Shown here piece after piece: positions 7,808 to 41,588 of a stretch of 64,000 nucleotides of DNA. Positions within the stretch are counted from its first letter, which is position 1; each line of letters starts with the position of its first letter. Made by a program: the position numbers and the translations under genes. The stretch lies in the IMG/VR virus record IMGVR_UViG_3300042275_000805. One strand, given 5' to 3'. The notes below the pieces were generated by a model. The model saw only the letters and a list, made by a program, of their open reading frames with translations. It was not told the DNA's origin and did not search any database. Source of the DNA: an uncultured virus (IMG/VR IMGVR_UViG_3300042275_000805) (lineage: Duplodnaviria > Heunggongvirae > Uroviricota > Caudoviricetes).

Positions 7808-8530
7808 CGGAAACCCTTCCAATTGTTAAACCTTTCCGTCGTCCAGAACGAAACATCCTGCCTCCCTTCGCCATGTGGACGGCTTTCCCGTCCTCGGACT
7901 ACTACGGAGGCTCCGCCACTTGGTCGCCTCTTCGGTGTGGATTCAGTCAATTTCATATGGATCAACCTATCCGTGTGAGCACCGTTTGCCGGACCGTCCG
8001 GCGTTCTACTCGACCAAGCTTCACTGGTTCCTTTGCTGACACAATTCGCTTTCGCGTAGGCTCCGACTCTTGAGACACCCAACAGCGTTCCGCTGCTCCT
8101 CCAAACACCGTCAGATAGTTGACCACTCTGACGACTACGGAACTCTTGCGAGTTCGTCAGGACAAACGACTGGGATAATATCGTTTGTCCGTTTGGATCA
8201 TTCCCTATTCCGGGAGCAACCCCGGACGGCTTCTGTGTTATCAGGAATGAGGACATGTTTTTCCGAAGGTGCAAGTCAGTTTCCTAATTAAGTAGCCATA
8301 CGAAAACACTACCTTGAGAGACTGCCACGGCTAAGAAGCCTTGCCTGTGTCTCCCGTTGTCCGGGGAGCTCTTTTGCCGAGCCGGCTCACACATTCCGGT
8401 CGACTTACCCCGTAGGTACGGTGGACGGCCAAACGTCCACGGTGTGCAATCACACATTGTCAAGCAAAGTATCTCGTGCTGTTGATTGCTTGTTGCCAAG
8501 CACTCAAGCAGCGCGATACATCAGTCGCAC

Positions 8531-14680: not shown

Positions 14681-17047
14681 TCAACGCGTTTTGCGTTTGA
14701 TGCTTGAGAGCTTGATTCGGGGACGGTTGTTCTGCTGGCGAACGTCCGTACCAAAGAGCACGCATCCCTGCATACTCGCAGCCACCGCACATCCGACCAG
14801 ACAGTCAAGCCAGTGATTGTCGCGACCCGGTGTTCGGAGTTTCCATTCATCAATCTGGCGACCACGTCCTTCGGTTTTGACCCGGTATTCAGCGGTCAGA
14901 TGTTCAGCCAGCATCCGATGATCCATTGATGAGCTATGTGCAAACAGTGACAAGCAACCCGGATCACCCATAGCCACGGACAATCTGGCATGCACAAAAC
15001 TTTTCCAGTAGTTGGTATCGATCAATGCATAGCGTATGGATCGACGTCCCTGAACACAGGGCACTCGCCAATGGAGACCAACCCGGTCACCGCGTTTGGG
15101 CTTGTAGTCGGAGAAAGGGATGCTGGACGCACCCACATACCGACCATGACTTGGCATCAGGACAGCAGCATGACTGCTTTGCCGACAGAACTGATACACG
15201 ACATCGGTGGAGTTGCCCCAGTTGGCGTCGATCATGCAGCGTTCGATACTCAACTCCGCACCATCATCCCGTCGAAAATGCTGCGCCAGACGTTTGGCGG
15301 TCAACGTTTCGAGTCCAGCATAGATTGCTCCTTCCAGGCCGGTCCCGGGGTGAGACATCATCATCGTCTTGCGTACATCACGAAGCGTGAAGTAACTCCG
15401 TTTCTGATCGGGATACGTACCATAGTCCAGGATGTAGCCGGTGAAATCGTCCTCCCAACCGCAGACCATCCAGAACAGTGCATTGCCCTGGACGTCAATG
15501 AACATGGTCATGTGATTGACACCCAATGGGACTTCACCACGTTGATGCCCGTTGGTTTTGGATGCGATGGTGTCCGCATCCAGCATCTCTTCACCTTGAT
15601 CCAAGATCGGCGGTTCATTCTGGTACTCAGCCCAGAACGCGGTTTCGCCCTGATCCAGTTTCAGGTTCATCGCATGTTGGATTGCTGACAACTCGTCGGG
15701 GTTGTGGCGCTCAGGCCATGCGACGACAAAACCTTCATCCATCTGCTGGCGATGCTTGCGATAGAACGCGGTGGATTCACCTGTCCCACGGTCTGTGCGT
15801 TGGCCTTCAGCACGGATCTGTGCATACTGCTGCCAGAGTTTGTCTGCGGGGCTGCCCGATGGTGGGAACGCATAGACCATCTTGGTGCGTTGGCCTTGCC
15901 ATTGCGGGTGTTTGTCACGATTGAGAATCCGGTCTGCCATGTCGTCAGGGCGCACCACGGTCAACGTCATCAGCCCGGCAATCTTCTTGCCTGGTCCAGC
16001 CAACCCCAGGATCGCACCCGACAGAATCTGTTCGCGCGTGGCACATTGCGATGGCGAACGGGCAGACTCATCCGTCTGCGGGTCATCCAACAACACCAGC
16101 GACGGCCGTGTCGTCTTGCCATCAGCACGTTTATGCTTCATGCCACGGATTCGACCCGTGATCCCAGCAACTTTGATGATCCCCGCAGAGGCAGTGGAAC
16201 CTTCGATATCCGGCAGAATGATCTCCTTGGAGGTCCAGCCAATATGCGTGCGTGCGCCACGATACAGTTGGCCTGCAGCACGTTGGTGAATGCCTTCCAA
16301 CGCACGGATTGGCCCGGTGACTTCCGAGAAGTCTTCGTCGATCAGATCGTTGTTTTCCAGCTCGGATTTGATCGAATCGAGCATGTCCGCAGCGTGATCT
16401 TCATCCGAACCAATCAACGCCACGAACTGCCGATGCCCATAAACCAACGCCCATAGACATGCCGTTTCGCACAAAGAGGTTTTGCCTGACCCACGCGGCA
16501 TGGCCATGGCAAACAAACCACCCTCCAGCACGGCCTGTTCAATCTTGGCAATCACAGCCAGGTGATCCGGCGACCAGGTCAAATGAAAGGTCATCTGGAA
16601 ATACTGCTCGCAAAACTCACGAAAACTGTTTCGGCAGGATTCCTTTCGCTCCGCATTGACGGGTGGGTGGACCCAACCATCAGAACCAATGTCACGCGAT
16701 GACTCTGAAGCTGCACGACTCCGTGCGTTGACTGCATCCTTATGTCGGGAGTACAGACTGTCGGCAGAGTCGGACGTGTCCGGTTCCTGCGACATCTCCT
16801 GACGTTCATGGAACAGCCACGCTGCATATCGCAACAGATCAAGCCGCCGCAGGTTTCCCGGCGATGCGATTCGACTGGCTGCACGGTTGAGATGGCGATA
16901 GACCACATGCGGCTGAATCACTTCACCCAACGGGGATGAATTGAGCAGCCGAACCGCCTCTGCCACACGCAATTGTCGCGGGTCGAGATTTCGAGATGGT
17001 GGATTGTTACCGGAACTCAACGGGCCTGTACCTCTCTGGCTAACCAT
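14681..17047 (-). CDS. Terminase large subunit (GpA-like) with N-terminal HTH-like extension
   Basis: Walker A AMPRGSGKT, Walker B VLLDDPQ, nuclease FIDVQ...IDANWG...NHWLDCLV. Confidence 0.9.
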   Translation of the reverse strand: MVSQRGTGPLSSGNNPPSRNLDPRQLRVAEAVRLLNSSPLGEVIQPHVVYRHLNRAASRIASPGNLRRLDLLRYAAWLFHERQEMSQEPDTSDSADSLYSRHKDAVNARSRAASESSRDIGSDGWVHPPVNAERKESCRNSFREFCEQYFQMTFHLTWSPDHLAVIAKIEQAVLEGGLFAMAMPRGSGKTSLCETACLWALVYGHRQFVALIGSDEDHAADMLDSIKSELENNDLIDEDFSEVTGPIRALEGIHQRAAGQLYRGARTHIGWTSKEIILPDIEGSTASAGIIKVAGITGRIRGMKHKRADGKTTRPSLVLLDDPQTDESARSPSQCATREQILSGAILGLAGPGKKIAGLMTLTVVRPDDMADRILNRDKHPQWQGQRTKMVYAFPPSGSPADKLWQQYAQIRAEGQRTDRGTGESTAFYRKHRQQMDEGFVVAWPERHNPDELSAIQHAMNLKLDQGETAFWAEYQNEPPILDQGEEMLDADTIASKTNGHQRGEVPLGVNHMTMFIDVQGNALFWMVCGWEDDFTGYILDYGTYPDQKRSYFTLRDVRKTMMMSHPGTGLEGAIYAGLETLTAKRLAQHFRRDDGAELSIERCMIDANWGNSTDVVYQFCRQSSHAAVLMPSHGRYVGASSIPFSDYKPKRGDRVGLHWRVPCVQGRRSIRYALIDTNYWKSFVHARLSVAMGDPGCLSLFAHSSSMDHRMLAEHLTAEYRVKTEGRGRQIDEWKLRTPGRDNHWLDCLVGCAVAASMQGCVLFGTDVRQQNNRPRIKLSSIKRKTR

Positions 17048-28162: not shown

Positions 28163-28436
28163 GCATTTAAATCGGACTGGACAGGTGACTGGATTTGAGC
28201 GACTGTGTCCGTCGCAAGGTAGCGGTTCTGAGAATGTGTACAGGACCGCCCACGCCGCCCGCATCGTGCCAGGGGCATCGTGGATTACCCAGGGCTTGTT
28301 CGACGCCACACGGCGGCTATGGTCGCCACGATACGGCTACGAGCTACCTGACAAGGAGGTCATTGAGATTCTGATGAATGTCAAGAATCTGGCACGGGTG
28401 CTCAGAGAGATCGGAGGTCAAAACGATGAGCAATAA
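28155..28436 (+). CDS. Hypothetical protein coupled to the recombinase
   Basis: GGAGGA SD before ATG 28155; overlaps both neighbours. Confidence 0.6.
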   Translation: MSEHLNRTGQVTGFERLCPSQGSGSENVYRTAHAARIVPGASWITQGLFDATRRLWSPRYGYELPDKEVIEILMNVKNLARVLREIGGQNDEQ

Positions 28437-30063
28437 ATGTGTGATATGGGCTCGCGTCTCATCGCGCGAACAACGTGAAGGCTATTCCATCGATGCCCAA
28501 CTGCGGATCACCCGCGAACGGGCGCAACGCGAAGGCTGGGAAATCGTCCGTGAATTTGTCGTGGCAGAATCAGCCAAGCGCGGTGCTGAACGTGTTACGT
28601 TCAACCACATGGTCCGATGGGTGCTTGCCAACGCCAAGCGACACAACATCGACTATATCCTGGCCCACAAACTCGACCGCATCTGCCGCAACATGAAAGA
28701 CGCGGTGCGCATGCAGGAGATCGAAGACAAGCATGGCATCAAACTCGCCTTCGTCGACAACCAATTCGGGACCGGGGCAGCAGGTGCGTTGTCCTTCAAC
28801 ATCATGGCAGCGGTCGCCCAGTACTATTCGGACAACCTGCGACAGGAGGTGCTCAAGGGGATCGAAGAGCGCGTGCGGCAGGGCTGGACGTCCGGGCTTG
28901 CGGCCTACGGGTACATGAATGTGCCCACGGATAAGGAAAGGCCGATCCACCCGCATCCTGAGAAATGCAAGGCCGTTCGCCGCATCTTTGAACTCTATGC
29001 CACCGGGACGATGACGTTTGAGCAGGTTGCCGATGTGCTAAACCGGGAGGGATTCGTTTACCGACCAAGCGTGCCACGGTTCAGCCGAACAGCGATTTCC
29101 TACATCCTCAATAACCCGTACTACACCGGGCTGGTCAGGCTCCGCGATGAATTGTTTGTCGGCAAACACGAACCGATCATCGACCAGGATACCTTCGACC
29201 AATGCCAGGCACTGCTCAAACGCAAGAACCGCCGCAGCAACAAGGTCAATCACTACCTGGCTTCGGGCATGTTCATCTGTGCCCACTGCGGGTATGGCAT
29301 CACGTCCGAACGCATCCGCCGAAAAAACAAGAATGGCAAGGTACGCGAGTACGTTTACTACCGCTGTGGCAACGTGTATCCCGACACAGACCATCCCAAG
29401 CTCCGCTGGCGACAGGAAGACCTGGAGGAGGCCATCCTCACCGACCTGCGTTCGATCCGCATTCAGGACGACAAGGAACGGCAGTGGTTCCGCGACAGCA
29501 TCATTGCCGCGTTTCAGGACGATACGCTTCTTCGGGCAGAACGGGCCAAGTCGCTCAAGCGTCGTGTGTCCGATCTTGAGAAGATGCAGCAGCGCCTTTT
29601 GGACGCCTATTTGGCGGGTGGGCTCGACCAGAAAACGTTCACCACCAAGACCAGCCAGTTCAAAGACCAGATTGCCCAGGCCCGGATGGATATCCAGACC
29701 AGCAAGGCTGCGCCACTGACTGGATTTGAACAGGTCTTGGAGGTCTTTGATTTGGCTCAGGAAGCGGCAAAACGGTGGGAAACCGGCGATCACGCGGCCC
29801 GTCGTGATCTCTTGGACGCGATACTATTGAACCGATCATTGAGTGCCACAAGTCTAGTGACGACAAAAAGAAAGCCCTTCGACCTGTTGGCCGAAGGGCT
29901 TGTCTTGAAGAAAAGTCGCCACTCCCTTTCCGGGTTTGAACGCATACCGCTTGAGTTTTTGTACTGGTTCTTGGAGACATCATTACAACACGATGCCATT
30001 GAGGAACTTATGGAAAACTGGAAGAGCGGAGCGTTTTTCATAGGATCAGGTGATGACGATTAA
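28426..30063 (+). CDS. Large serine recombinase (integrase)
   Basis: WARVSS catalytic Ser, ESAK, KLDRICRN, recombinase domain ILNNPYYTG...HEPII, CAHCG...YYRC zinc ribbon, coiled coil. Confidence 0.93.
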   Translation: MSNKCVIWARVSSREQREGYSIDAQLRITRERAQREGWEIVREFVVAESAKRGAERVTFNHMVRWVLANAKRHNIDYILAHKLDRICRNMKDAVRMQEIEDKHGIKLAFVDNQFGTGAAGALSFNIMAAVAQYYSDNLRQEVLKGIEERVRQGWTSGLAAYGYMNVPTDKERPIHPHPEKCKAVRRIFELYATGTMTFEQVADVLNREGFVYRPSVPRFSRTAISYILNNPYYTGLVRLRDELFVGKHEPIIDQDTFDQCQALLKRKNRRSNKVNHYLASGMFICAHCGYGITSERIRRKNKNGKVREYVYYRCGNVYPDTDHPKLRWRQEDLEEAILTDLRSIRIQDDKERQWFRDSIIAAFQDDTLLRAERAKSLKRRVSDLEKMQQRLLDAYLAGGLDQKTFTTKTSQFKDQIAQARMDIQTSKAAPLTGFEQVLEVFDLAQEAAKRWETGDHAARRDLLDAILLNRSLSATSLVTTKRKPFDLLAEGLVLKKSRHSLSGFERIPLEFLYWFLETSLQHDAIEELMENWKSGAFFIGSGDDD

Positions 30064-30198
30064 TAACGGTTGTTTGGTACGATTAGATGCCGATTGGTGG
30101 CGTTTGTTTGGGGCGGTTTTACACAGCCAGTTGTCCAATGAACACTCAATATGCACGTTGAAAATCAGTTGGTGGCTGCTACTACAGATGAGGTTTGT

Positions 30199-30284
30199 CG
30201 CAGGGACACGATCATTTCATGCAGGGACATTTGTGGATAAGTCCCTGCAAAGTCCCCGCACGATGTCCCTGCATTGTCCCTGTG
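30199..30284. repeat. Six-copy GTCCCTGCA-like array (2 inverted + 4 direct)
   Basis: GCAGGGAC at ~30200 and ~30221; GTCCCTGCA, GTCCCCGCA, GTCCCTGCA and GTCCCTGTG at 30241-30284. Confidence 0.75.
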
Positions 30285-30374
30285 CAATATACTCGATTCA
30301 ATGAATTGGGGGGGGCAGTGAGGGCAGACATCAATGGTCGCATGCTTGCGTGCCAATGAGGGGAATTGGCCAAA

Positions 30375-30880
30375 CTTCCGTCAATGCCTGCCGGAAGGTC
30401 GAAGCCACCGTCGTCGACCAACTGCGGGTCCTGTTACGACACCATGACGTGATCGCCCGAACCTATAACCAGATCCGCAAGGCCAGCGAGTCTGGCCCAG
30501 ACGCCGCGACGTTGGCCCGTCTGGAAGAACTGGGCAGGCACCGCAAATAAACCGAACATGCCAGCCAGTCCGTCTTAAATACCGAGTACCAAGACGGCGA
30601 CTTCATTACCGATGAACTCAAATACCTCAATAGCCAGTTCAAACTCTTGAACACCGAGATTCCAGATTTGAATGAGAAGTCATCGATCAAATCCGTCGAA
30701 TTAAACCAAGCCACAGAAGTTCCGCGTGCCATCAATCCGGTATAGATGTTCCTGGTTTTCGAGGAGCAGCACCGGATTATTCAACTGCTGCTCGAAGACA
30801 CCGTCGTCACCGCCAGTGGCATGAAGATCACACGCGACAATGGCAGCATCGTCGTTGACATCCCCATCCGGTTCTTAGCT
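30375..30880 (+). pseudogene. Relic of a second serine recombinase C-terminus
   Basis: Single frame reading VEATVVDQLRVLLRHHDVIARTY...EEQHRIIQLLLEDTVV, broken by TAA (30548) and TAG (30743); no catalytic N-terminus. Confidence 0.6.
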
Positions 30881-31166
30881 ATAGCGAAGTTCAATTGTTG
30901 CTTTTCACCATATGGTGTGTCAAGTCAGTTATTCGTCTTGGAATAGTTGTGCGTCTCAGATAAACTAATGTATATCTTGCCGGGGGGGTGTTCTCCAGCA
31001 AAATGACCGCGCACCGGTCTGTTTCTCACGAAAAATTAATGCTTTACTAGATTAGCCTAATCAACTGTTAGCGGCACAGAGGCCGTGATATCACCAGTTG
31101 GTGCGTGAGTTACCAAGCGACAGAACATGGTCTGTGCAAACAGTAGCAACTTAAACGAGGAGAAGC

Positions 31167-32117
31167 ATGGCAGTGAAGGTTTCGACCAACAACCATCAAG
31201 CCGACCGCTGGAAAATGCGTGGTGGTCCAGCAGGGTTTCACCTATTCAATCGTACCACCGGTCTGAACGTCCTCCTCGACGAAGTGGCCGTGCCACCCTC
31301 GCTTCACGCTCGAGTACCTCGGCAGGTTTCCATCGCTCTCACCAACCGCTGCGATCTTGCGTGTGCTCACTGCTATGCACCGAAGTCCCGAGCCGAACTT
31401 CGGTTTGATGACATCACACGATGGTTGGCCGAACTTGATTCGAATGGCACCCTCGGAGTTGGCTTTGGTGGTGGCGAGCCGACGCTTTACCCGGAGTTTG
31501 AGAGGCTCTGTCAACATATAGCACGCGAGACCCAGCTCTCCATGTCGTTTACAACCCACGGCCACCACATTGATGATGTTCTTGCGGAGAGTATTCGCGG
31601 CAGCGTCAACTTTGTCCGCGTAAGCATGGATGGCGTCGGTGCCACCTACGAATCTATTCGGCGTCGCTCCTTCGATGAGTTACTCGCTCGGTTTCAGCAC
31701 GTACGATCCATCTCCAACTTCGGTATCAATGTAGTGATCAATGAGCTTACATTGCCCAATCTAGATGACGTCGCCATTGTCGCATCGGATGTTGGCGCCT
31801 GTGAGTTGTTGCTGCTCCCACAGGTTCCGGTACGCGGGGTTCCAGCGATTTCCCAGGATACTTTGCAAGGCCTACGCCGTTGGGTTGACTCCTACAGGGG
31901 CTCACTGAAGCTCTGCATTAATGAGATGAGTGCCGAAGGCTTTCCGACGTGCGATCCATTGAGTCAGGAACACGGCTTACTCGCATATGCCCACATTGAC
32001 GCGATGGGTGTTCTCAAGCCCACTTCGTATTCGGACACCGGGGTGAAACTCGGTGATCGAGGAATGCTGCAGACGCTCGAGCAACTTACTCATGACCTTA
32101 AGGAGAATGAATCATGA
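31167..32117 (+). CDS. Radical SAM protein
   Basis: LTNRCDLACAHCY CxxxCxxC, FGGGEPT, FTTHG, RVSMDG; GAGGAG SD. Confidence 0.93.
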   Translation: MAVKVSTNNHQADRWKMRGGPAGFHLFNRTTGLNVLLDEVAVPPSLHARVPRQVSIALTNRCDLACAHCYAPKSRAELRFDDITRWLAELDSNGTLGVGFGGGEPTLYPEFERLCQHIARETQLSMSFTTHGHHIDDVLAESIRGSVNFVRVSMDGVGATYESIRRRSFDELLARFQHVRSISNFGINVVINELTLPNLDDVAIVASDVGACELLLLPQVPVRGVPAISQDTLQGLRRWVDSYRGSLKLCINEMSAEGFPTCDPLSQEHGLLAYAHIDAMGVLKPTSYSDTGVKLGDRGMLQTLEQLTHDLKENES

Positions 32118-32518
32118 AGATTTGGTACCAGCACAGCTCCGAGCACTCCGCGAATCTCGTGATGATCGGGCATTTCGAGGACGCAGCCAAGGCGAAGAAA
32201 GCCGAAATGATTATCGATACGCTAACGAAACACGTCTGTAAGGAGGAATTAGATGGCAACCTGATCGTGGGGCAGCCGTCGGAGCGGTACGGCAGCGAGA
32301 TGCTCGATTTTCTTTTGAAGCTTAACGTCTCATCAATCGGTCCACGTGAGTTAGAGCAGTTCCTCTACGACGTGAGAGTGGAGGTAAAGGAAAGCAAGAT
32401 CGTCGTTACGACCGATGAGATCGAAATCTCTGCCTTCCTCAAAGTCATGCTAGATCATGGAGCACGCATTGAGGTCTACTCAGCACACAACCATCCCAAC
32501 AGCGAGTACGGAAGGTGA
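32114..32518 (+). CDS. Conserved hypothetical protein (DUF6375-like)
   Basis: MKIW...SEHSANLVMIGHF N-terminus and GARIEVYSAH C-terminus, recalled as DUF6375; ATGA overlap with the rSAM gene. Confidence 0.65.
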   Translation: MKIWYQHSSEHSANLVMIGHFEDAAKAKKAEMIIDTLTKHVCKEELDGNLIVGQPSERYGSEMLDFLLKLNVSSIGPRELEQFLYDVRVEVKESKIVVTTDEIEISAFLKVMLDHGARIEVYSAHNHPNSEYGR

Positions 32519-32540
32519 TGCCGATGAGAATGGAGCCGCA

Positions 32541-35500
32541 ATGCCAGCGCTGAATTGGGACATCTTCACCAACCTACCAGGAAGCGCGGAAAAGAACTTC
32601 GAGTTGCTCTGCCGAGGAATCGTACGCCAGAACTTTGGCAGCTACGGTACCTTCCGCGCTCTCGCGAACCAGCCGGGCGTCGAGTTCCATCTCATACTCG
32701 ACAAGCACTGCAATACACTCGGTGATCCGGAACGTTGGTGGGGCTGGCAGTGTAAGTGGTACAACCTCGCAGCGAACCGCAAGCTGGGTTCGACCAGGCG
32801 AAATAAAATCGAGGATGGACTCCGAAAGACGGAACAGCACTTACCTGACCTCACGGATTGGGTACTCTGGACACGCCGCACGCTAACCAAGGACGACCAA
32901 GACTGGTTCAACGGCCTTTCCTCCAAAATGACACTCCATCTATGGACAGGTGACGAGGTCGACAACCTTCTCACGGGGCAAGCTACCGTCCTTCGTGGCA
33001 CTTTCTTTGGCGAGTTGGTACTCACGCCCGACATGCTGCGTGAGTTTCATGAACAGGCTGTCGCTCCGATTCAAGCGCGATGGCAGCCAAACGTGCATCA
33101 TGTTGGTGAAGCCGAGCGTGATTTGCGTCGTATGCTTGGAGAAGTAGAAGTATGGAAGGTGCTTAGCGAACTGGCAATAGAATTGCGTGCGATCGCCAGT
33201 GCGGTCGATTCGTCGCCAGCCGTGCCTGCTCTACTTGAACCGCTCGTGATAGGAGTCGTCGACACGGCCCTGCAATCGGCAGTCACCCTCGACAGGATCG
33301 CGGCAAGCATCGGCGTCGGTGACCTGGACCTTCTTCGCGATGAGTTCACCGCCTATTCACGTACGCTACCTTCTGAGGTGAAGACTGCCCCTCGAAGACT
33401 CAGGGCACGCAGGCAGCGCGCGGGGCTTTACGCGACAAACGCGGTGGCGGGTTGTCACGATGCGATACAGTTGATTGGCGAGGTTGAGGCGGGGTTTTCT
33501 TCGCGATTGGTCGCAGTCCTTGCGCCCGCAGGATGCGGAAAGACGCACCTTGCGGCGCAACTCACGGCAGGAACAACGGAGCGTCCCCACGGGGTGCTTT
33601 TGCACGGAAGGGACTTGCACGCGCGTCACACCCTCGACGACCTAGCTCGTCGTGTGTCGATCGCGGCGCAACCTGTGGCGAGCATGGAGGCGCTCCTTGC
33701 TGCAGTGAATGCTGCTGGCCAGCGTGCTCAGAAACGTCTTCCTATTTTCATCGACGGCCTGAATGAGTCGGAAGACCCTAGGACGTGGAAGCCGTTACTC
33801 GCTGCGCTAGAGACCACCCTCGCAAAGTATCCGTACGTGCTGCTGGTCTGCACGCTTCGCCCCGAATTTTCGGATGAAGCACTCCCCGAGGTTACTCGCC
33901 GCATGGAGATCAACGACTACGGTGAGGAGACTGACGAGGCAATTCGCAAGCATTTCCACTACTGGAAGATCAATGCCACCGACGCATCCTTCCCCAGCTT
34001 TCTAAGGCATCCTCTTACGCTACGCCTCTTCTGCGAAGTGACGAACCCGACCCGGCAGCAGGTCGTCGGCATGGGGGCGACGCCGGGATCTTTGAGCGAG
34101 CTTTTTGAGCGTTTCTTGAAACAGGTGGGAGAACGGATCGTTGAACTGGCTCCACGCACGCACAAGTTTAATGCGCAGGACGTAAACACGGCGATCACAG
34201 CCATTGCAAACAAGCTGTGGGAGTCAAAAGCCCGTCATATAGAGCTCAGTGAACTTCGAAATATGCTCGCAGATGCGCATCGTCCTTGGGACCAGAGTCT
34301 TGTGCGTGCTTTAGAGCATGAGGGCGTGTTGCTCCGCATGCCTTCGAACGGTACCCACACCTATGTGCCCGTATACGACCTGCTCGGTGGGCACATCATA
34401 GCCAACGCACTATTGGCAAAGCATGGTCAAGATAGCTTTGAGGCATGGATCAAGGATTCTTCCACAACAACATTGCTTGCTGGCAGCAGTGACGTTCGGC
34501 ACCCGCTTGCCGATGATATTCTCCACTCGTTGGTGGGGCAGGTCCCTCGTCGCTCCTACGCGAATCAGGTCTGGCAACTGGTGGACGAGCCGCTGCGTGG
34601 TCGTGCGCTGCGGATGTCGGCGTACCACGATCCAGCTTACCTTGATGTGGTGACGGTCGACGCGCTGCTAGATCTTGTTCGGGCTGGAGACTCAGAGATA
34701 CTATTCCGCTTTTGGCAAATACGTGGTACTCATGGCCATCCGCTGAACGCTGAGGGCTTGGATCGGGCACTGCGTGACATGACGGTTTCGGAACGCGACC
34801 TTTGTTGGACGGAATGGATTCGCAGGAACAAAGACGACTTGTTTTCGAACCGTCGAAACGTGATCGGCGATCTTGAGCGTTTAGAGCGGCGATGGCGAGA
34901 CGAGAATGTTCGCGGGGGTGAGGGTGAACAACTACGCGCTCGCTGGGTCATGTGGACACTCACGAGCACGATTCGTCGGCTTCGTGATCAAGCAACGCGC
35001 ACGCTCTACTGGTTCGGACGCGTCGATCCCGAAGGGTTTTTCACGCTGACCATCGATTCACTGCCAGTGAACGACGCCTACGTGAGCGAGCGGATGCTCG
35101 CGGCCGCATACGGCGTGGTGATGACCTATCAGCAAGTAGATGCTGGATTCGCAGATTCTCTGGGGCGGTTTCTCGAACAACTCGCGTCGGCGCTCGTGGG
35201 GCATTCGGCGACAGCGCCGACGCATCACTACCTCATGCGGCTCTATGTTCGCGGTATCGTCAACTTTGCCGCGAAGTTCTATCCGGCATCACTGCCTACC
35301 TCGCTGAAAGGTGCATGGATGTTCGCCGCACCTGCACCAGTGCTGCCCCTCCCCGACGGTGATATAGATGCTGACGAGGCTGGGCGAACACTGCATATGG
35401 ACTTTGAGAATTACACACTGGGAAGACTGATCGACGGTCGCAGAAATTACGACATGAACCATGCGGGGTATAAGGCTGCCGTGGCTCATGTGCGAGGCGT

Positions 35501-36668
35501 TGTGTGGGCGCTTGGATGGCGAAGCGAGATCTTCAGGACGTTGGACATAAGCATCTCAGAGGATGTTCATCGCAGAGGGCGTGGAGATCAACCGAACGTA
35601 GAACGTTATGGGAAGAAGTACGGCTGGATTGGGTTCTACACGTACGCTGGTCTACTCGAGGATCGGGGCCAGTTTCCTCGCGAAAACAACGAGTTCTCTG
35701 ATGTGGACATTGATCCATCGTTCCCTGAAAAGCCACCCGCAGATGGATCTGCGTCAGTTCCAGTGACTTGGCTGTCACCGACTGTGGAGAGTCATCAGAC
35801 TTGGATGCTGGAGAGCACCACGTCGGTACCACGCAACCTCCTTCGTCGAGAGCAGATCGGTGACAGTTGTGGCCCGTGGGTGGGCGTCCACGGCTTCGTT
35901 AAGACTGAGGACCGGGTTCTCGGGCGTGAAGCATGGGCATTCATCTCTGCATTTGTGACGTCAAAGGAGAGCGTTTCGCGACTAGTAGCCGCGTTGAACG
36001 CAGGTGAACAGCCATGGTTGGCTCGTGAAGTTCCGAGCGATTACTACATGTTCGCTGGCGAGATGCCGTGGCATCCAAACTTTGGTTCTCTGGCGCTCTC
36101 CGAGGAAGCATACAGTGAGAGCGTTGGGAGCGAAGCTGACGCTGTCGAGGTGGAGGTGGTCGCGCACGGCTACGCATGGGAGAGCTACCACAGCGAAATG
36201 AATCGCGCGGGAAGTACGATAGTACCGTCCCAGCCTTTTTCACATCGATTCGATCTCCGTAGCTCTGCGCAATCCTTCGACCAGTTCCTTGCGGACGGTA
36301 GCAAAGCTACGGTAACACTTAGCGGTGTCGATGGCCTCGAAGGACAGTTGCTCTATATCCGAGAAGATCTACTCAAGCAGTATGTAGATGACCGAGCAAT
36401 TATCTGGTATGCATTCGGCGAGAGGGAGTTGCGACCTTATCCACCATCACCACCACAATGGCTCGTGGACGCTCAGCAACAAGAGTTGAACTCTTGGCGC
36501 GAAGTACTCACTGAAGCAGACCTCTTGCAGAATGAGAAACCGTCTCGGAAGAAGAAAGAAGTCAAGCAGCAGCGAGCTAAAAAGAGCACGGCGAAAAAGC
36601 GATCTGCCAAGGTGGCTACGAAGCAAGTAACTACCAAGCGGGTGAAGCGAGCCAAGAGGAAGCCGTGA
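32541..36668 (+). CDS. Avs (AVAST)-like STAND NTPase with N-terminal Mrr/PD-(D/E)xK-type nuclease
   Basis: NFE...NQPGVE...GWQCKWY N-terminus like Avs4; Walker A APAGCGKT, Walker B IFIDGLNE; HPLNA, NDAYVSER, ERYGKKYGWI and DIDPS sensor-region motifs; GGAG SD; 1,375 aa. Confidence 0.8.
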   Translation: MPALNWDIFTNLPGSAEKNFELLCRGIVRQNFGSYGTFRALANQPGVEFHLILDKHCNTLGDPERWWGWQCKWYNLAANRKLGSTRRNKIEDGLRKTEQHLPDLTDWVLWTRRTLTKDDQDWFNGLSSKMTLHLWTGDEVDNLLTGQATVLRGTFFGELVLTPDMLREFHEQAVAPIQARWQPNVHHVGEAERDLRRMLGEVEVWKVLSELAIELRAIASAVDSSPAVPALLEPLVIGVVDTALQSAVTLDRIAASIGVGDLDLLRDEFTAYSRTLPSEVKTAPRRLRARRQRAGLYATNAVAGCHDAIQLIGEVEAGFSSRLVAVLAPAGCGKTHLAAQLTAGTTERPHGVLLHGRDLHARHTLDDLARRVSIAAQPVASMEALLAAVNAAGQRAQKRLPIFIDGLNESEDPRTWKPLLAALETTLAKYPYVLLVCTLRPEFSDEALPEVTRRMEINDYGEETDEAIRKHFHYWKINATDASFPSFLRHPLTLRLFCEVTNPTRQQVVGMGATPGSLSELFERFLKQVGERIVELAPRTHKFNAQDVNTAITAIANKLWESKARHIELSELRNMLADAHRPWDQSLVRALEHEGVLLRMPSNGTHTYVPVYDLLGGHIIANALLAKHGQDSFEAWIKDSSTTTLLAGSSDVRHPLADDILHSLVGQVPRRSYANQVWQLVDEPLRGRALRMSAYHDPAYLDVVTVDALLDLVRAGDSEILFRFWQIRGTHGHPLNAEGLDRALRDMTVSERDLCWTEWIRRNKDDLFSNRRNVIGDLERLERRWRDENVRGGEGEQLRARWVMWTLTSTIRRLRDQATRTLYWFGRVDPEGFFTLTIDSLPVNDAYVSERMLAAAYGVVMTYQQVDAGFADSLGRFLEQLASALVGHSATAPTHHYLMRLYVRGIVNFAAKFYPASLPTSLKGAWMFAAPAPVLPLPDGDIDADEAGRTLHMDFENYTLGRLIDGRRNYDMNHAGYKAAVAHVRGVVWALGWRSEIFRTLDISISEDVHRRGRGDQPNVERYGKKYGWIGFYTYAGLLEDRGQFPRENNEFSDVDIDPSFPEKPPADGSASVPVTWLSPTVESHQTWMLESTTSVPRNLLRREQIGDSCGPWVGVHGFVKTEDRVLGREAWAFISAFVTSKESVSRLVAALNAGEQPWLAREVPSDYYMFAGEMPWHPNFGSLALSEEAYSESVGSEADAVEVEVVAHGYAWESYHSEMNRAGSTIVPSQPFSHRFDLRSSAQSFDQFLADGSKATVTLSGVDGLEGQLLYIREDLLKQYVDDRAIIWYAFGERELRPYPPSPPQWLVDAQQQELNSWREVLTEADLLQNEKPSRKKKEVKQQRAKKSTAKKRSAKVATKQVTTKRVKRAKRKP

Positions 36669-36709
36669 CACTATAGCCGGAAGGCGGCTGTGATCTCATT
36701 GGCACTATT

Positions 36710-37198
36710 TTAAGCTTTCTTTTCTACAGCCGGCTCTGGACTTAGAAACAGTCCAGCTATACCCAGGCAGATAATGCTCCAGAATGCGATTTTCTGGCCG
36801 AACTTTCGTCGAACTGCTTTCTTGATTAGATTTTCAAATATCTGATTGATTTCCGCTTGGGTTTTGTTCTGTAGAACAACAGCCTGAATGTGCTTTAATT
36901 CGCTAGGCAATTGTTCGGGAGGCATATTCCAAAGGATTATGATGATTTCTTTTTCGTTGTGTTCAGCAACTGCGATTTCGCGGGTTACTGCTCTTGACTC
37001 ACACGCTTCTTTACTGGCCAAGAGCCAAAGAGCATCGCATTCTTTGAGTTCTTGGTGCAATCGGCATTGCCAGTCTTCTCCAGGATCAATGCTGTGCTCG
37101 TCTAGGAACACCGAAAGTTTTGCTTTTTCACAGTACTTCTTCAAACCTGTGGCTATTTGTGAATCATGATGGCTGTGGCTGATAAAAATGTCTGACAT
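36710..37198 (-). CDS. TIR-domain protein with C-terminal TM helix
   Basis: IFISHSHHD, VFLDEHSIDPGEDW, VTREI (catalytic Glu position); IAFWSIICLGIAGLFL. Confidence 0.85.
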   Translation of the reverse strand: MSDIFISHSHHDSQIATGLKKYCEKAKLSVFLDEHSIDPGEDWQCRLHQELKECDALWLLASKEACESRAVTREIAVAEHNEKEIIIILWNMPPEQLPSELKHIQAVVLQNKTQAEINQIFENLIKKAVRRKFGQKIAFWSIICLGIAGLFLSPEPAVEKKA

Positions 37199-37438
37199 GT
37201 GAGGTTTCCGGAAATTGCGAAGATAAACAGTGAGCATCAAATGAAGGTGCTCAATTTCAGTTGGATCGTAATGACTCCATGATACGGTTTTTAGCCATGC
37301 AGTTCACTTTGTTGTGAGGGCATTTGTTGGATGGCGACTGTAAATGATGTCTCACAGCTGTACGCGAGACTTAGAGTGAATTCTATCCCGGAAGATTCTT
37401 GATTAGGGGTAAGTAATTTGGTTTTATCACGTTTGTAG

Positions 37439-38557
37439 TTAAATCTGACGAGTCTTCAACACGTAGTATCCCGGCCTCGGCTTTCGGATGAATGACACCA
37501 TTCCTCGGTTGGTCAGTCCAGTCAATTCACGTTTGGCCTGTTTGTCGCCAATGGCAAATTGATCCTCCACCATTTTGCGGGTCAATTGCATTCCGTTGCG
37601 AAGTTGATCCAGAATCCAGAGTTGGCGTTCGGTCAATGGTGAATGTGCGTCACCCATCGAAGTGCATTGGGTTGATGTAGTGTTTGATGACAGGACTGGT
37701 GCATGTGATACTGGTTCTGCGGGGCCTGTTTTTTCATCATACCGCTCAATCCTCAGCCAATCGGCCAGGTGGTAGCCTTTACCTTTGTTGGCGATGACGT
37801 CGTTTCGACTGACGGTTAAGCGTGATTCTTCAAGTAAGATTTGGGCGATGCGTGTTCGCAAGGTGTGGACGCATGAATTGATTGCACCGTCTGAGAGTTG
37901 ACCTGATGGATCAATGGCCTTGGCCAATCTGGGAGCACTGAGGCGGGGGCGTTTGCCATTGTTTTGTGGTTTGCTCAGAGCGTGGAGGATGAGCCAACCA
38001 TTTCCGGGGGCGGGGTGTTGGGATTCGAGAATGGTTTCACCGGCCAGTTCGATGTGATTGGGAAAGAACGCCAGCACACCACCTTCAAATGGTTTGGGCG
38101 GATCGCCAAGGCAGGTGCCTTTGGGTAGTGATATGCGGTGCATGTTCAGTACGTTGCGAATGGCTTGTGGCAGACTTTTGCCGGTGGTGCCGTCACCGAA
38201 GGGTTTGGAGATAAAATCCATCGCGCCGTTGCCCATGAGATCCATCACCATATTCAGACCTTTTTCGTGATGACCTGTCATGACGATGACGGGTGTGATG
38301 CCACGCCCGTTGATTTGCTGAATCTGTTCGATGAGCAGTTTGCCATACTCGATGTTGGCAAAGCCACGTCCGGTACGAGCGGGGATTTCCAGATCGGCAA
38401 GCACGTACTGGTAAGTGTTTTGCTCGATCAAGTCGCGAGCCTGCTGCTGGCTTTGTGCCCAGTCGTGTTCGTGGCCAAGTAGTTGCAGCACATCCATGAT
38501 CTGTTCCTGGATTTGAAGATCATCTTCAACAACCAGTGCTTTAACTTTCGACTTCAT
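37439..38557 (-). CDS. Response regulator: REC + OmpR-like wHTH + second C-terminal wHTH
   Basis: LVVEDD, LADLEIP (phospho-Asp), MTG, FISKPF; NKGKGYHL wing; LTERQLWILDQL...AKRELTGL. Confidence 0.88.
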   Translation of the reverse strand: MKSKVKALVVEDDLQIQEQIMDVLQLLGHEHDWAQSQQQARDLIEQNTYQYVLADLEIPARTGRGFANIEYGKLLIEQIQQINGRGITPVIVMTGHHEKGLNMVMDLMGNGAMDFISKPFGDGTTGKSLPQAIRNVLNMHRISLPKGTCLGDPPKPFEGGVLAFFPNHIELAGETILESQHPAPGNGWLILHALSKPQNNGKRPRLSAPRLAKAIDPSGQLSDGAINSCVHTLRTRIAQILLEESRLTVSRNDVIANKGKGYHLADWLRIERYDEKTGPAEPVSHAPVLSSNTTSTQCTSMGDAHSPLTERQLWILDQLRNGMQLTRKMVEDQFAIGDKQAKRELTGLTNRGMVSFIRKPRPGYYVLKTRQI

Positions 38558-39702
38558 GGGGTTGTCTCCGGTGTTGGTGATTGCTTGCGTTTGAATGTGA
38601 TCAAGGCGGTGGTGCCAGCATCCTCACTACTGGCAAAGGCCAACGTGCCAGCATGGGCTTCGATATAGCGACGGGCGATGGGCACCCCAAACCCCGTGCT
38701 TTTGCGCTTGGCTTTGTTGCGACGTCGCGGCATGCCTGAATCCAGAATAGTGAGATGTTCGGAGGCCATGCCCATGCCGTTGTCATGGATGCTTATCTGT
38801 ACTTCATCATTACGTTGGTCGGCAGTGACCAGGATTTCGCCGGAACGTAAATGCTCGTGTTGTTCCATGAAAGATTCATAGGCGTTCTTGACGAGATTGG
38901 CGACAGCCAGAATGATCAGGTGCTTGGACATGCGCAGACGCAAGCCGTCGGGAACGTCCTGTCGTAAGGTGATGTTGCGTGGATCGTAGCCCAGTTCCTC
39001 GATGTTCTTGGCAGCCATCTCGCACGCAGCAGTCAGCACTTCGCCTACATCCTCAGCCTGCTGTTGTGGCGGTATTGGTTCGGTGTAGCGTTCCATGTCA
39101 CTGACACATCGCTCAATGAATGCCAAACTTTCCAGCACACGGGATGTCTTGCGTCGGGCAGCGTCGATATCAACGCTGCCATCCAAGGCGTTGTTTAATC
39201 CACGTGCAGCGGGTTGCAGATGTGTCAGAACACTACGCAGATCGTGGGCCATCGAACCAGCCAACTGGTTGAATCGCATTTCGCTGATGGCCTTGACATC
39301 ATCAATGGCATCGGGACCATACTTGTTTCGTAATCGTGTTAACCGACTGGCCAACTGCCGATCCACCGTTTCACGCTTGCGATCAAGCCGATGCGTTTGC
39401 CTGCGTTTGGTATCGCTTTGTTCAGCAGCACGTTTGACGAAGCCATTGGGGTCATCCGTCAGGTCTGACACAAGTTTGGAATACAGATCGTCATCCACCA
39501 GATACAAACCATTGGCAATGACCTTGCGGACTTCCCATTTGGGATCGTTGGCAAAGTGTTCAAGCAACTGTCGGATTGAGGTGGTGTATTCAACCACCTG
39601 CCCGGTCTGCACAGCATCCATCAAAGATTGAGCCATAGCCAGACGATCGCGCCAGTGGGGTGATTGACTTAATTGTGCAAGTATGTCATCCCAACGATCC
39701 AT
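38554..39702 (-). CDS. Soluble histidine kinase with N-terminal HEAT-like repeats
   Basis: DPKWEVRK and DPNGFVKRAA HEAT-like motifs; H-box AHDLRS, N-box NLVKNA, DNGMG, TGFG; no TM segment. Confidence 0.88.
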   Translation of the reverse strand: MDRWDDILAQLSQSPHWRDRLAMAQSLMDAVQTGQVVEYTTSIRQLLEHFANDPKWEVRKVIANGLYLVDDDLYSKLVSDLTDDPNGFVKRAAEQSDTKRRQTHRLDRKRETVDRQLASRLTRLRNKYGPDAIDDVKAISEMRFNQLAGSMAHDLRSVLTHLQPAARGLNNALDGSVDIDAARRKTSRVLESLAFIERCVSDMERYTEPIPPQQQAEDVGEVLTAACEMAAKNIEELGYDPRNITLRQDVPDGLRLRMSKHLIILAVANLVKNAYESFMEQHEHLRSGEILVTADQRNDEVQISIHDNGMGMASEHLTILDSGMPRRRNKAKRKSTGFGVPIARRYIEAHAGTLAFASSEDAGTTALITFKRKQSPTPETTP

Positions 39703-41588
39703 CAGCGAGCATACCTTTCCCGTCGTTGAGCGAATGCCTCCTCACCACCTTCCAGAAGGTTGATGATTTCGGGTTTGCAGGTGTCTACGTCACCTTGGTT
39801 GAGCAGGCGGGATTGGTTGCCATCAGAGGTCAGAACGAACACATGTGCCGCATCACCCAGCACCGGGATGTTGGGATTGTGCGTGATCAGAATCAACTGG
39901 CGATTGGCTTTGACGCGGTGAATACCCTCGACGACCGTGTCGTAGATGAAGCGATTGTCCAGGTTGTCTTCCGGTTGATCAATGAGCAGTGGGTTTTCAC
40001 TGTCCAGCAACAAGATCGGCAAAATGGTGGTGCATTTCTGTCCGGTGGACAGGGATAGTGAATCCTTCCAATGATCACCATCCTTGAGTTCGATCTTGGG
40101 TAGATCAATCAAATCGACGATCTCAATCTTCAGAAGCAGTTCCGTGTCATTGAGTGCGTTGATGACTTTTTCAGCCTGGTTGCCGTTGAGTGTGGTTTGC
40201 TTCTGAAGCGAGTGGATGTCCAGTTGCTGGACTAGAGAGACCAATTCCGAAGGTGCAACCACCTTGGCAATCCGTTTGGCAACCTGATTGTGATTGATAC
40301 CGGCATGTTTCAGAACATCGGCCAGAAGGCAGATGTATTGTTCTCGGTTTTCATCTTGAGCGATCCGCACACGCACTGGTGATGAAACCGCATCCGTGAT
40401 CTGCTGGGCAATCGATAGACGCAGATTGAACCGTTGATCACGTAATTCCGTCAGTTGATCGATGTGAGTCTGGCGTTCTGATTGAAGCGTTTGTAGCCGA
40501 TCCTTGAGTTCCTTGTGTTGACGCTGCTTGTTGAGCAGATCGTTGCGTTTACGTTCCCACTGTGCGCGTTCGGTTGCCTGTCCCTGAGCTTCTTTGTGTC
40601 GCGTCATCAAGTCGCGGAAGGCCAACTCCTGTTGACTGTGCTTGCCTTGTAATTCCTGAGTTTGTACAGCCAGTTCTGATTGCGAACGATGGAGCAGGGC
40701 GACGGCTTGTTGAAATAGCTTGTCCAACTCGTTGCCTGTTTGATGCATTTGCGTGCGGATGGCCTGAATGATGCTGCCGTTGGGGCCGTTTATCACATCT
40801 TCAGCAAACAGGCTGTCAACACCAGTGGTAAATCGGCCATTGGCATCACATAGCCATTCAGTGTATTCATTGATCTGCTGCTTGGCTTGCCCGATCGCAT
40901 GAGTTTCCCGGTCGCGCAATGCCTTATGCGTCTGGGCTTGGTTCATCTGGTCCGCATTCTCGCCACCGACATGAGCCAGTTTGTCGATCCGATCTTCAAC
41001 GCTCTTGAGCGTGGTCAATTCATCAGCCAGTTTGGCCAGCGTGATCTGGGCAGGCACCATCGTCTTGGCATTGGCCTGTAACTTGGCATGGACTTCAGCA
41101 ATCGCCGTATCCAGACTTGCGATCTCATCAGCCACAAACGCATCGATCAATGCCAACTGGGATTCCGGGCTGTCAGCAATGTTCTCCACCTCGTTCTGGC
41201 TGAACAGATCCGCACTGAAGATACCGCCGGAATTGATGGTGATATCGGTGGGTTGCCCATCTATCGTGAGTACGATGGGATTGCCGGTGGCTGTGCGATC
41301 CACGATGTAGTCTAAGCCGTCCTTGGTTTGGATCGTAAGACGAATACGTCCGTCCCCCAGATTCTGCCGCACCAACGATTCCACACGACGTCGGCAAACT
41401 TGCCCGACATCACCCGGCTGAAACTCGTTGAGCACATAGCGGACGAATTCCAGAATCGTGGTCTTGCCTGTCCCGCGATGGCCGATCAGACAATTCAATC
41501 CATCCACAAACTGGATGTCCAGGCTATCCAGAAACCCTCCCGTCACCGACAAGGATTTGATTAGGTGACAACGTTTTGATTCAAACAT
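39702..41588 (-). CDS. SMC/ABC-type ATPase with long coiled coil (TrlF/Ppl-ATPase-like, no PHP domain)
   Basis: GHRGTGKT, FSQNE Q-loop, LSTGQK signature, LLIDQPEDNLD, ITHNPN, LEGGEEAF. Confidence 0.88.
   Translation of the reverse strand: MFESKRCHLIKSLSVTGGFLDSLDIQFVDGLNCLIGHRGTGKTTILEFVRYVLNEFQPGDVGQVCRRRVESLVRQNLGDGRIRLTIQTKDGLDYIVDRTATGNPIVLTIDGQPTDITINSGGIFSADLFSQNEVENIADSPESQLALIDAFVADEIASLDTAIAEVHAKLQANAKTMVPAQITLAKLADELTTLKSVEDRIDKLAHVGGENADQMNQAQTHKALRDRETHAIGQAKQQINEYTEWLCDANGRFTTGVDSLFAEDVINGPNGSIIQAIRTQMHQTGNELDKLFQQAVALLHRSQSELAVQTQELQGKHSQQELAFRDLMTRHKEAQGQATERAQWERKRNDLLNKQRQHKELKDRLQTLQSERQTHIDQLTELRDQRFNLRLSIAQQITDAVSSPVRVRIAQDENREQYICLLADVLKHAGINHNQVAKRIAKVVAPSELVSLVQQLDIHSLQKQTTLNGNQAEKVINALNDTELLLKIEIVDLIDLPKIELKDGDHWKDSLSLSTGQKCTTILPILLLDSENPLLIDQPEDNLDNRFIYDTVVEGIHRVKANRQLILITHNPNIPVLGDAAHVFVLTSDGNQSRLLNQGDVDTCKPEIINLLEGGEEAFAQRRERYAR

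Follow-up and report, generated by a model that had tools for sequence, protein, structure and literature searches.

Within a 64,000-nt stretch of DNA from the IMG/VR virus record IMGVR_UViG_3300042275_000805 (the window), the three adjacent genes at positions 31167-36668 very likely form a member of the KpAvs2-type three-gene Avs2 defence system described by Béchon et al. (Nat Commun 2024; PMC11564622). Following that paper we call them avap1, encoding a radical S-adenosylmethionine (SAM) protein, avap2, encoding a protein of the PF19902/DUF6375 family, and avs2, encoding a large nuclease-STAND-sensor protein (Table 1). An initial annotation of the window had proposed an undescribed anti-phage system in which an NLR-like nuclease-STAND protein is joined by radical SAM and DUF6375 partners, and had stated that no Avs protein with a radical SAM partner was known. 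Homology to the tested Klebsiella operon supports the anti-phage part of this proposal. Its claims to novelty do not hold: the same architecture had already been described, tested and thereby catalogued, and the KpAvs2 operon does have a radical SAM partner, Avap1 (PMC11564622).

Avs2 homologues typified by KpAvs2, from Klebsiella pneumoniae S_15PV, are encoded in an operon of the order Avap1-Avap2-Avs2; ~5% of Avs2 homologues have Avap2, and most of those have Avap1 too. In E. coli, the Klebsiella operon protects from phages via abortive infection, and defence is lost in mutants of the nuclease (K71A), the NTPase (K337A) and the C-terminal domain (Δ1066-1352). KpAvs2 alone gives weak defence. 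Avap2 is required for defence and binds the helical bundle between nuclease and NTPase, as judged by AlphaFold-Multimer and co-immunoprecipitation; it is bound to KpAvs2 both before and after infection, and its gene could not be deleted while avap1 and avs2 were present. Avap1 gave no defence alone, is dispensable against SECphi18 and contributes against T2. The authors detected no nucleotides of the prokaryotic viperin (pVip) type in infected cells in which the full operon was expressed, they report that a nucleoside triphosphate (NTP) does not fit the predicted Avap1 site, and they declare the roles of both helpers unknown (PMC11564622).

The assignment of the window's trio to this system is carried by the paper's own definitions and by a shared genome. 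In its methods, Avap1 and Avap2 are PF04055 and PF19902 matches within two genes of an Avs2 homologue, found there by HHsearch and in our analysis by hmmscan (PMC11564622). The window's Avap2 scores 145 bits against PF19902 (cut-off 27.5) and its gene is adjacent to avs2, while Avap1 scores 60.7 bits against PF04055 (cut-off 29.5), which places both within the published definitions. Furthermore, Syntrophobacterales bacterium Delta_02 (our locus L017), among the four genomes drawn in Fig. 1B of PMC11564622, carries the trio in the same order, with Avap1, Avap2 and Avs2 77, 62 and 69% identical to those of the window and with a single Avap1 match in the whole genome. In our literature search, DUF6375 occurred in full text only in Béchon et al. 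2024, no other paper combined Avs2 with 'radical SAM', and, among the matches listed, the names Avap1 and Avap2 were used in this sense only there (PMC11564622). A 2026 Avs2/Upx preprint mentions KpAvs2; the words 'accessory' and 'radical' are absent from it.

Several points weigh against this assignment. The link to KpAvs2 runs through the paper's definition and the Syntrophobacterales genome, and the putative anti-phage function of the window copy is read from homology (PMC11564622). The NCBIfam Avs2 model yields only 230 bits against a curated cut-off of 1000, and the C-terminal domain lies outside the best-scoring stretch of the Avs2 profiles used (PADLOC, NCBIfam and PDB). One locus of our survey has a lone, degenerate Avap2 adjoining a PglZ gene, as described below. 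Finally, the host is apparently planctomycete-like, and because the phages of such a host are unstudied, the triggers may differ.

The gene anatomy agrees with what the initial annotation had read from the locus, namely three co-oriented genes joined by an ATGA overlap and a 22-nt gap. A program-made list gives open reading frames at 31167-32117, 32114-32518 and 32457-36668, all on the plus strand. Inspection of the sequence places ATGA at 32114-32117, where the TGA stop of avap1 overlaps the ATG of avap2; the avap2 stop (32516-32518) is followed after 22 nt by the avs2 ATG at 32541, with GGAG five bases 5' of it. The avs2 frame is open from 32457, and we assign the start to 32541, giving 1375 residues, because all 40 aligned Avs2 homologues begin within 0-2 residues of the motif MPxLNW. 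Many avap1 homologues initiate at a GTG two codons inside the annotated start. The same 4-nt overlap between avap1 and avap2 was counted in the locus table in 52 of 57 loci; avap1 is frameshifted in two of the five loci that lack it. Promoter-like and terminator-like sites at the locus were no commoner than in shuffled sequence. The radical SAM and DUF6375 calls are borne out by Pfam, and the three motifs that had been singled out are all present: the CxxxCxxC of Avap1, the Walker A lysine of Avs2 (K334) and its QCK nuclease motif (Q70-C71-K72).

The third protein is recognised by the PADLOC scan that had been suggested for it. Model PDLC02164 matches residues 2-911 at 7.8e-99 and five further Avs2 models match as well; the eight PADLOC families with matches comprise six Avs2 and two GajB models, with no Avs4 model among them. 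Pfam gives only sub-threshold NACHT/AAA matches for the protein and nothing usable for its first 160, next 160 and last 475 residues. The NCBIfam Avs2 equivalog NF041813 matches at 4.7e-68 (230.2 bits, best stretch residues 325-911), and because this score is so far below the cut-off of 1000 bits, the protein belongs to a divergent Avs2 subfamily and is not an equivalog of the NF041813 seed proteins. In a PDB profile search, the Avs2 structure 9o4e matches residues 327-864 at 3.7e-23. The label 'Avs4-like' that the initial annotation had attached to the protein thus survives for the N-terminal nuclease and gives way to Avs2 for the protein as a whole. A profile of residues 1-160 built from 40 homologues matches the nuclease of EcAvs4 (8dgf; residues 3-102, E 3.7e-05), with aligned motifs NQPGVE/NQSGIE and GWQCKWY/GWQSKFY.

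Conservation within Avs2 follows these domains. E21, E48, Q70, C71, G331, G333, K334, T335 and D405 are invariant in the 40 homologues. Residue 72 (window 32754-32756) is lysine in 25 and arginine in 15 of these trio-type proteins; the arginine occurs mostly in the more divergent ones, in which E21, E48, Q70 and C71 are unchanged. K72 and K334 correspond to the mutated K71 and K337 of KpAvs2 (PMC11564622). One of the most conserved blocks (0.77) is residues 151-200 in the nuclease-NTPase linker, and the presumed sensor domain keeps 0.5-0.7 per block among the trio-type homologues. Conservation falls to 0.36 at residues 1301-1350 and to 0.19 at 1351-1375.

By analogy with the Klebsiella operon, the window trio would sense an infecting phage and abort the infection (PMC11564622). 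The C-terminal domain of Avs2 would bind a phage protein, for example the large terminase or small phage-specific proteins, the STAND NTPase would then drive assembly, and the N-terminal Mrr-type nuclease would degrade DNA. Avap2 would be a constitutive partner seated on the helical nuclease-NTPase linker and needed for full defence, and Avap1 would be needed against some phages only.

The trio is tightly linked across distant genomes. Of 1058 candidate relatives of Avap2, 1055 pass E ≤ 0.001; the 120 best of these show 64-75% identity across very different phyla. A scan of one genome per species, seeded by two Avap2 peptide patterns that favour close relatives, gave 58 loci. The gene immediately 5' of avap2 encodes Avap1 in 57 of them and the gene immediately 3' encodes Avs2 in 56, in many phyla; this neighbourhood analysis of DUF6375 homologues agrees with the initial view that the three genes belong together. 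One exception (L058) is a contig that ends within avap2. The other (L032) is a lone avap2 with a degenerate or scrambled 3' end, which lies behind a PglZ-domain gene (L032:7340-9561) and overlaps its stop by the same 4 nt, with neither Avap1 nor Avs2 nearby, and probably represents a remnant within a different defence island. To offset the bias of the seed patterns, profile searches were added. The PF19902 profile matched three of 401 genomes in a sample of one phylum, and all three carry the trio. The Avap1 profile matched three of 401 genomes of another phylum at E ≤ 1e-30, two of them strongly and both with the trio; the third match is a weak generic radical SAM protein without partners.

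Distance matrices over 38 shared loci correlate at r 0.83 for Avap1-Avap2, 0.92 for Avap1-Avs2 and 0.92 for Avap2-Avs2, values matched by none of 2000 permutations, although relatedness alone yields part of the correlation. The correlation shows that the partners have not been shuffled between operons, and from the strict linkage and co-inheritance across many phyla we conclude that both helpers are integral to the system. Sixteen plasmids also carry the pair or the trio (12 from Vibrio, two from Deinococcus and two from cyanobacteria), and RefSeq names these copies 'radical SAM protein', 'DUF6375 family protein' and 'ATP-binding protein'. On the Vibrio parahaemolyticus plasmid pLH80-1 (L061, 7397-12731), the Avs2 gene is interrupted by an IS3-family transposase and the BREX gene brxL adjoins.

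Avap1 combines the core of a radical SAM enzyme with a three-stranded N-terminal sheet. Its AlphaFold2 model (predicted local distance difference test, pLDDT, 92.7) has three short strands (residues 15-20, 23-28 and 33-37) followed by a partial TIM barrel and a C-terminal extension, and R18, H25 and R29 of the three-stranded sheet are invariant. Beyond C62, C66 and C69 there is no invariant cysteine among 53 sequences, C115 being near-invariant and C250 and C262 variable; because only the three motif cysteines are invariant, Avap1 is taken to be without an auxiliary cluster, and the C-terminal auxiliary-cluster cysteines that mark SkfB and SuiB are not found in it. The closest folds to the model are nevertheless these maturases of ribosomally synthesized and post-translationally modified peptides (RiPPs), SkfB (6efn; Z 26.7, 286 residues aligned, root-mean-square deviation (rmsd) 3.3, model residues 14-316) and SuiB (5v1s; Z 24.7, 299 aligned, rmsd 3.2, residues 10-316). 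Viperins follow (Z ~22.4, ~237 aligned, rmsd 2.2-2.4, residues 49-308), then MoaA, anSME, PqqE and BlsE at Z ~20, and Foldseek returned the same order. A PDB sequence-profile search likewise ranked SkfB best (9.2e-18), the best viperin-like enzyme reaching 4.7e-12. The NCBIfam viperin model NF038283 gives 50.8 bits against a cut-off of 180, and the PADLOC pVip profiles match at 3.7e-17 over profile positions 2-149 of 257, that is, the radical SAM core. By curated thresholds, then, Avap1 is not classed as a viperin. The structural model looks somewhat nearer to the peptide- and protein-modifying enzymes, by a margin of a few Z units and without their auxiliary clusters.

Avap2 is modelled as a small alpha/beta sandwich (pLDDT 84.7) that resembles nothing closely. 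The best Foldseek match (E 9.2e-03) is not significant, a structural search against all representatives reached at best Z 6.2 with a generic ferredoxin-like sandwich, the best PDB profile match has E 0.19, and the best ESM Atlas match (0.77) is below a meaningful level. The invariant residues include M1, W4, E10 and H11 of the N-terminal tail, followed by S12 and N14. A tail that is conserved yet predicted to be disordered alone is as expected for a segment that could fold on a partner, either the Avs2 linker or Avap1. We also considered Avap2 as a glycyl-radical cofactor, on account of its small size and C-terminal GRGR, and rejected this, since the C-terminal tail is not conserved in distant members. 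Candidate Avap1-Avap2 fusions were rejected too: of four longer proteins, three are read-throughs caused by frameshifts, and the fourth (P0124) begins with an unrelated coiled coil. The latter protein (380 residues, on a 1235-bp contig) has ~250 coiled-coil-like residues in frame before the Avap2 domain and no upstream Avap1, and represents either another architecture or an artefact of gene calling.

What the helpers do can be read in more than one way. Avap1 might be a radical SAM enzyme that acts on proteins or peptides, modifying the Avap2 tail or a site on Avs2, and thereby sets the state of the receptor nuclease, a reading that we regard as unlikely in its general form and that is compatible with the KpAvs2-type assignment. 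It is favoured by the rank of SkfB and SuiB in both the structural and the profile searches, by the fact that their alignments, and not those of the viperins, take in the N-terminal sheet (residues 15-37) with its invariant R18, H25 and R29, by the invariant and apparently flexible Avap2 tail, and by the translational coupling of avap1 to avap2 in nearly all loci. However, viperins score nearly as high with a tighter fit, the cysteines with which SkfB and SuiB hold their auxiliary clusters are not conserved in Avap1, the four longer forms include no genuine Avap1-Avap2 fusion, and the conserved tail could be merely a surface for binding Avs2. Moreover, defence against SECphi18 occurs without Avap1 (PMC11564622). 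In a more specific version, Avap1, lacking an auxiliary cluster, would modify the flexible invariant tail of Avap2 or the Avap2-binding linker of Avs2, such that an NLR-like receptor would be licensed or tuned by a radical-mediated post-translational modification; this we consider quite unlikely. To our knowledge, radical-mediated post-translational control is not known for any STAND/NLR protein.

The initial annotation had proposed that radical SAM chemistry arms, regulates or complements the effector. Under the last of these options Avap1 would be viperin-like and make a modified nucleotide as a second, independent antiviral arm. The pVip profile matches and the alignment of viperin structures over ~237 residues (Z ~22) speak for this idea, and Avap1 matters against T2 only, as a separate arm might (PMC11564622). 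It is nonetheless very unlikely, given that the pVip match is limited to the radical SAM core, that the viperin score is far below its cut-off, and that strict linkage to Avap2 and Avs2 would be unexpected for a self-sufficient enzyme. The Klebsiella study adds that pVip-type nucleotides were not detected in infected cells, that the predicted Avap1 site does not accommodate an NTP and that Avap1 by itself is not protective (PMC11564622). A different balance of roles is conceivable, in which Avap2 is a restraint or adaptor that stops Avs2, or Avap1 and Avs2 together, from firing without phage, with Avap1 lowering the threshold for some triggers in a manner reminiscent of toxin-antitoxin pairs and not by way of a modification required in itself. 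Since avap2 could not be deleted beside avap1 and avs2, toxicity is suggested, and Avap2 sits on KpAvs2 before and after infection while KpAvs2 alone is weak (PMC11564622); in the sampled loci the three proteins are co-inherited and translationally coupled. Yet Avap2 is required for defence, beyond tolerance (PMC11564622), and its fold is uninformative. We hold this proposal, too, to be unlikely.

A further alternative concerns the setting of the trio, which the adjacent prophage might carry as cargo to keep competing phages out. Prophage genes with an integrase at their end precede the trio (Table 1), and a provirus record (G001, 30,626 bases) that encodes avap2 at 100% identity maps by its coordinates to about window 6046-36671, thus taking in avap2 and ending at the avs2 stop. 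The closest relative of the trio argues otherwise. In a metagenome-assembled genome of Phycisphaeraceae (L022), Avap1 and Avs2 are 92% and 83% identical to those of the window, and the locus is collinear with window 29916-30460 (79% nt identity) and 30918-37719 (86% nt identity), the latter stretch taking in the trio, the TIR gene and the beginning of the gene after it. Upstream of this it has genes for a LacI-type regulator, a DUF1559 protein, a superoxide dismutase, a sulfatase and an AraC regulator, and it lacks the prophage genes altogether. Because the collinearity begins near 29916, the comparison places the right junction of the prophage there, in the last 49 codons of the integrase frame, and the trio is chromosomal, ~1.25 kb outside the prophage. 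As the Phycisphaeraceae genome has the trio without the prophage, the trio does not appear to be prophage cargo. Among 50,697 phage genomes there is none with a gene for a relative of Avap2, no phage record matches the trio DNA, and recombinase matches lie near the trio in only three of 58 loci, one of them a fragment of 49 residues. We find the cargo reading highly improbable.

No convincing att-type direct repeats around the prophage and no convincing tRNA genes were found. The 457 bp between the prophage end and avap1 (window 30461-30917) are absent from the Phycisphaeraceae genome and show no clear terminal repeats. It may be added as an observation that a terminase-encoding prophage here adjoins a member of a terminase-sensing receptor family.

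The integrase and TIR genes that had been noted beside the trio both exist, and both are incidental neighbours. The TIR protein is 96.6% identical to its counterpart in the Phycisphaeraceae genome, and a relative lies beside the trio in that one of 58 loci and is absent from the other 57. Judging from these counts, the TIR gene and the recombinase are not part of the system; the TIR gene may be a separate defence gene. Beyond it, three overlapping genes occupy 37439-41588 on the minus strand. The first encodes an ATPase matching the C-terminal two thirds of TrlF/Ppl (positions 295-943 of 944; 276.7 bits against a cut-off of 350), the second a histidine-kinase-like protein with HEAT and HATPase_c domains, and the third a receiver-domain protein with an uncharacterised C-terminal part of 250 residues. 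This set is possibly an uncatalogued defence module beside the Avs2 operon. Further on, an open frame of >6904 residues runs off the window (43289-64000, plus strand); because of its make-up of PKD, FG-GAP, cadherin-like and PA14 domains, which stand beside He_PIG, Laminin_G_3 and Big_9, its product looks like a surface adhesin-type protein. Within the prophage, a 560-residue open reading frame (6140-7822, minus strand) combines a reverse transcriptase (phrog_1423, 2.8e-91) with a C-terminal HNH domain and resembles a group II intron protein.

Table 1. Features of the trio and its surroundings, in window coordinates.
Feature	Coordinates	Strand	Details
avap1	31167..32117	+	radical SAM accessory protein, 316 residues; PF04055 2.6e-16
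CxxxCxxC [4Fe-4S]/SAM motif of Avap1	31350..31373	+	C62, C66, C69; invariant in 53 aligned sequences
avap2	32114..32518	+	DUF6375 accessory protein, 134 residues; PF19902 2.1e-42, residues 1-133
Avap2 N-terminal tail	32114..32146	+	residues 1-11, MKIWYQHSSEH; pLDDT <50
avs2	32541..36668	+	nuclease-STAND-sensor protein, 1375 residues; PADLOC Avs2 7.8e-99
PD-(D/E)xK/Mrr-type nuclease domain of Avs2	32541..32960	+	~residues 1-140; E21, E48, Q70-C71-K72; 8dgf match; boundary approximate, inferred
Nuclease-NTPase linker of Avs2	32961..33500	+	~residues 141-320; putative Avap2-binding helical bundle, role taken from KpAvs2 (PMC11564622)
STAND NTPase module of Avs2	33501..35273	+	~residues 321-911; NCBIfam 325-911, PDB 327-864; D405
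Walker A GCGKT of Avs2	33531-33545	+	residues 331-335
Presumed C-terminal sensor domain of Avs2	35274..36530	+	~residues 912-1330; putative role from KpAvs2 Δ1066-1352 (PMC11564622)
Lys/Arg-rich C-terminal tail of Avs2	36531..36665	+	~residues 1331-1375; lineage-specific; read from translation
TIR protein	36710-37240	-	175 residues; TIR_2 2.9e-19; ThsB-like PADLOC models 1.1e-13; convergent to avs2
Prophage gene content	2115-30063		tape measure, capsid-protease, portal, large terminase (14681-17047), ParB-methyltransferase, primase, helicase, SSB, Sak4, exonuclease, sigma-like regulator, serine integrase
Large serine recombinase ('integrase')	28378-30063		Pfam

Since the system type was published and tested in 2024 (PMC11564622), the window contributes a new copy and its value as a discovery is small. 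The potential for novelty that remains lies in the reaction that Avap1 catalyses and in what Avap2 does. Within the trio, avs2 is the one gene that PADLOC 2.0 and NCBIfam flag, and users who rely on PADLOC, NCBIfam and RefSeq names alone will keep rediscovering the trio as new. In addition, by including the trio, the provirus call probably runs ~6.7 kb past the end of the prophage, which is a caution against counting such systems as phage-borne.

Compared with the KpAvs2 operon, the window locus has the same gene trio and domain order, with the key lysines at near-identical positions (K71/K337 and K72/K334; PMC11564622), whereas its host differs, being planctomycete-like as judged by the Phycisphaeraceae relative, and the basic C-terminal tail of its Avs2 is lineage-specific. 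The single-gene Avs2 proteins (AVAST type 2; EcAvs2, PDB 9o4e) share a homologous STAND NTPase, over the stretch given above. Typical Avs2 proteins act alone, while the trio clade was always linked to its helpers in the sampled loci, and the profile matches of the window Avs2 end at about residue 911 in the best-scoring stretch. Unlike single-gene Avs2, the Avap2-associated clade needs accessory proteins (PMC11564622). With EcAvs4 (8dgf), the window protein has a homologous N-terminal nuclease in common, but its NTPase and sensor regions are without an Avs4 profile match, the NTPase matching Avs2. Avs4 senses the portal protein.

Avap1 has a radical SAM core in common with pVip, as well as a similar fold, and both occur in defence contexts; in contrast to pVip, no viperin-type product was detected for the Klebsiella homologue, which gave no defence on its own (PMC11564622). 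Avap1 also scores below the curated viperin thresholds, its match being confined to the core. SkfB and SuiB are the top structural and profile matches to Avap1, the N-terminal sheet included. Compared with them, however, Avap1 is ~100 residues shorter and keeps, in place of their peptide-recognition domain, a remnant of three strands, and a precursor-peptide gene is absent at the trio, unless Avap2 serves as one.

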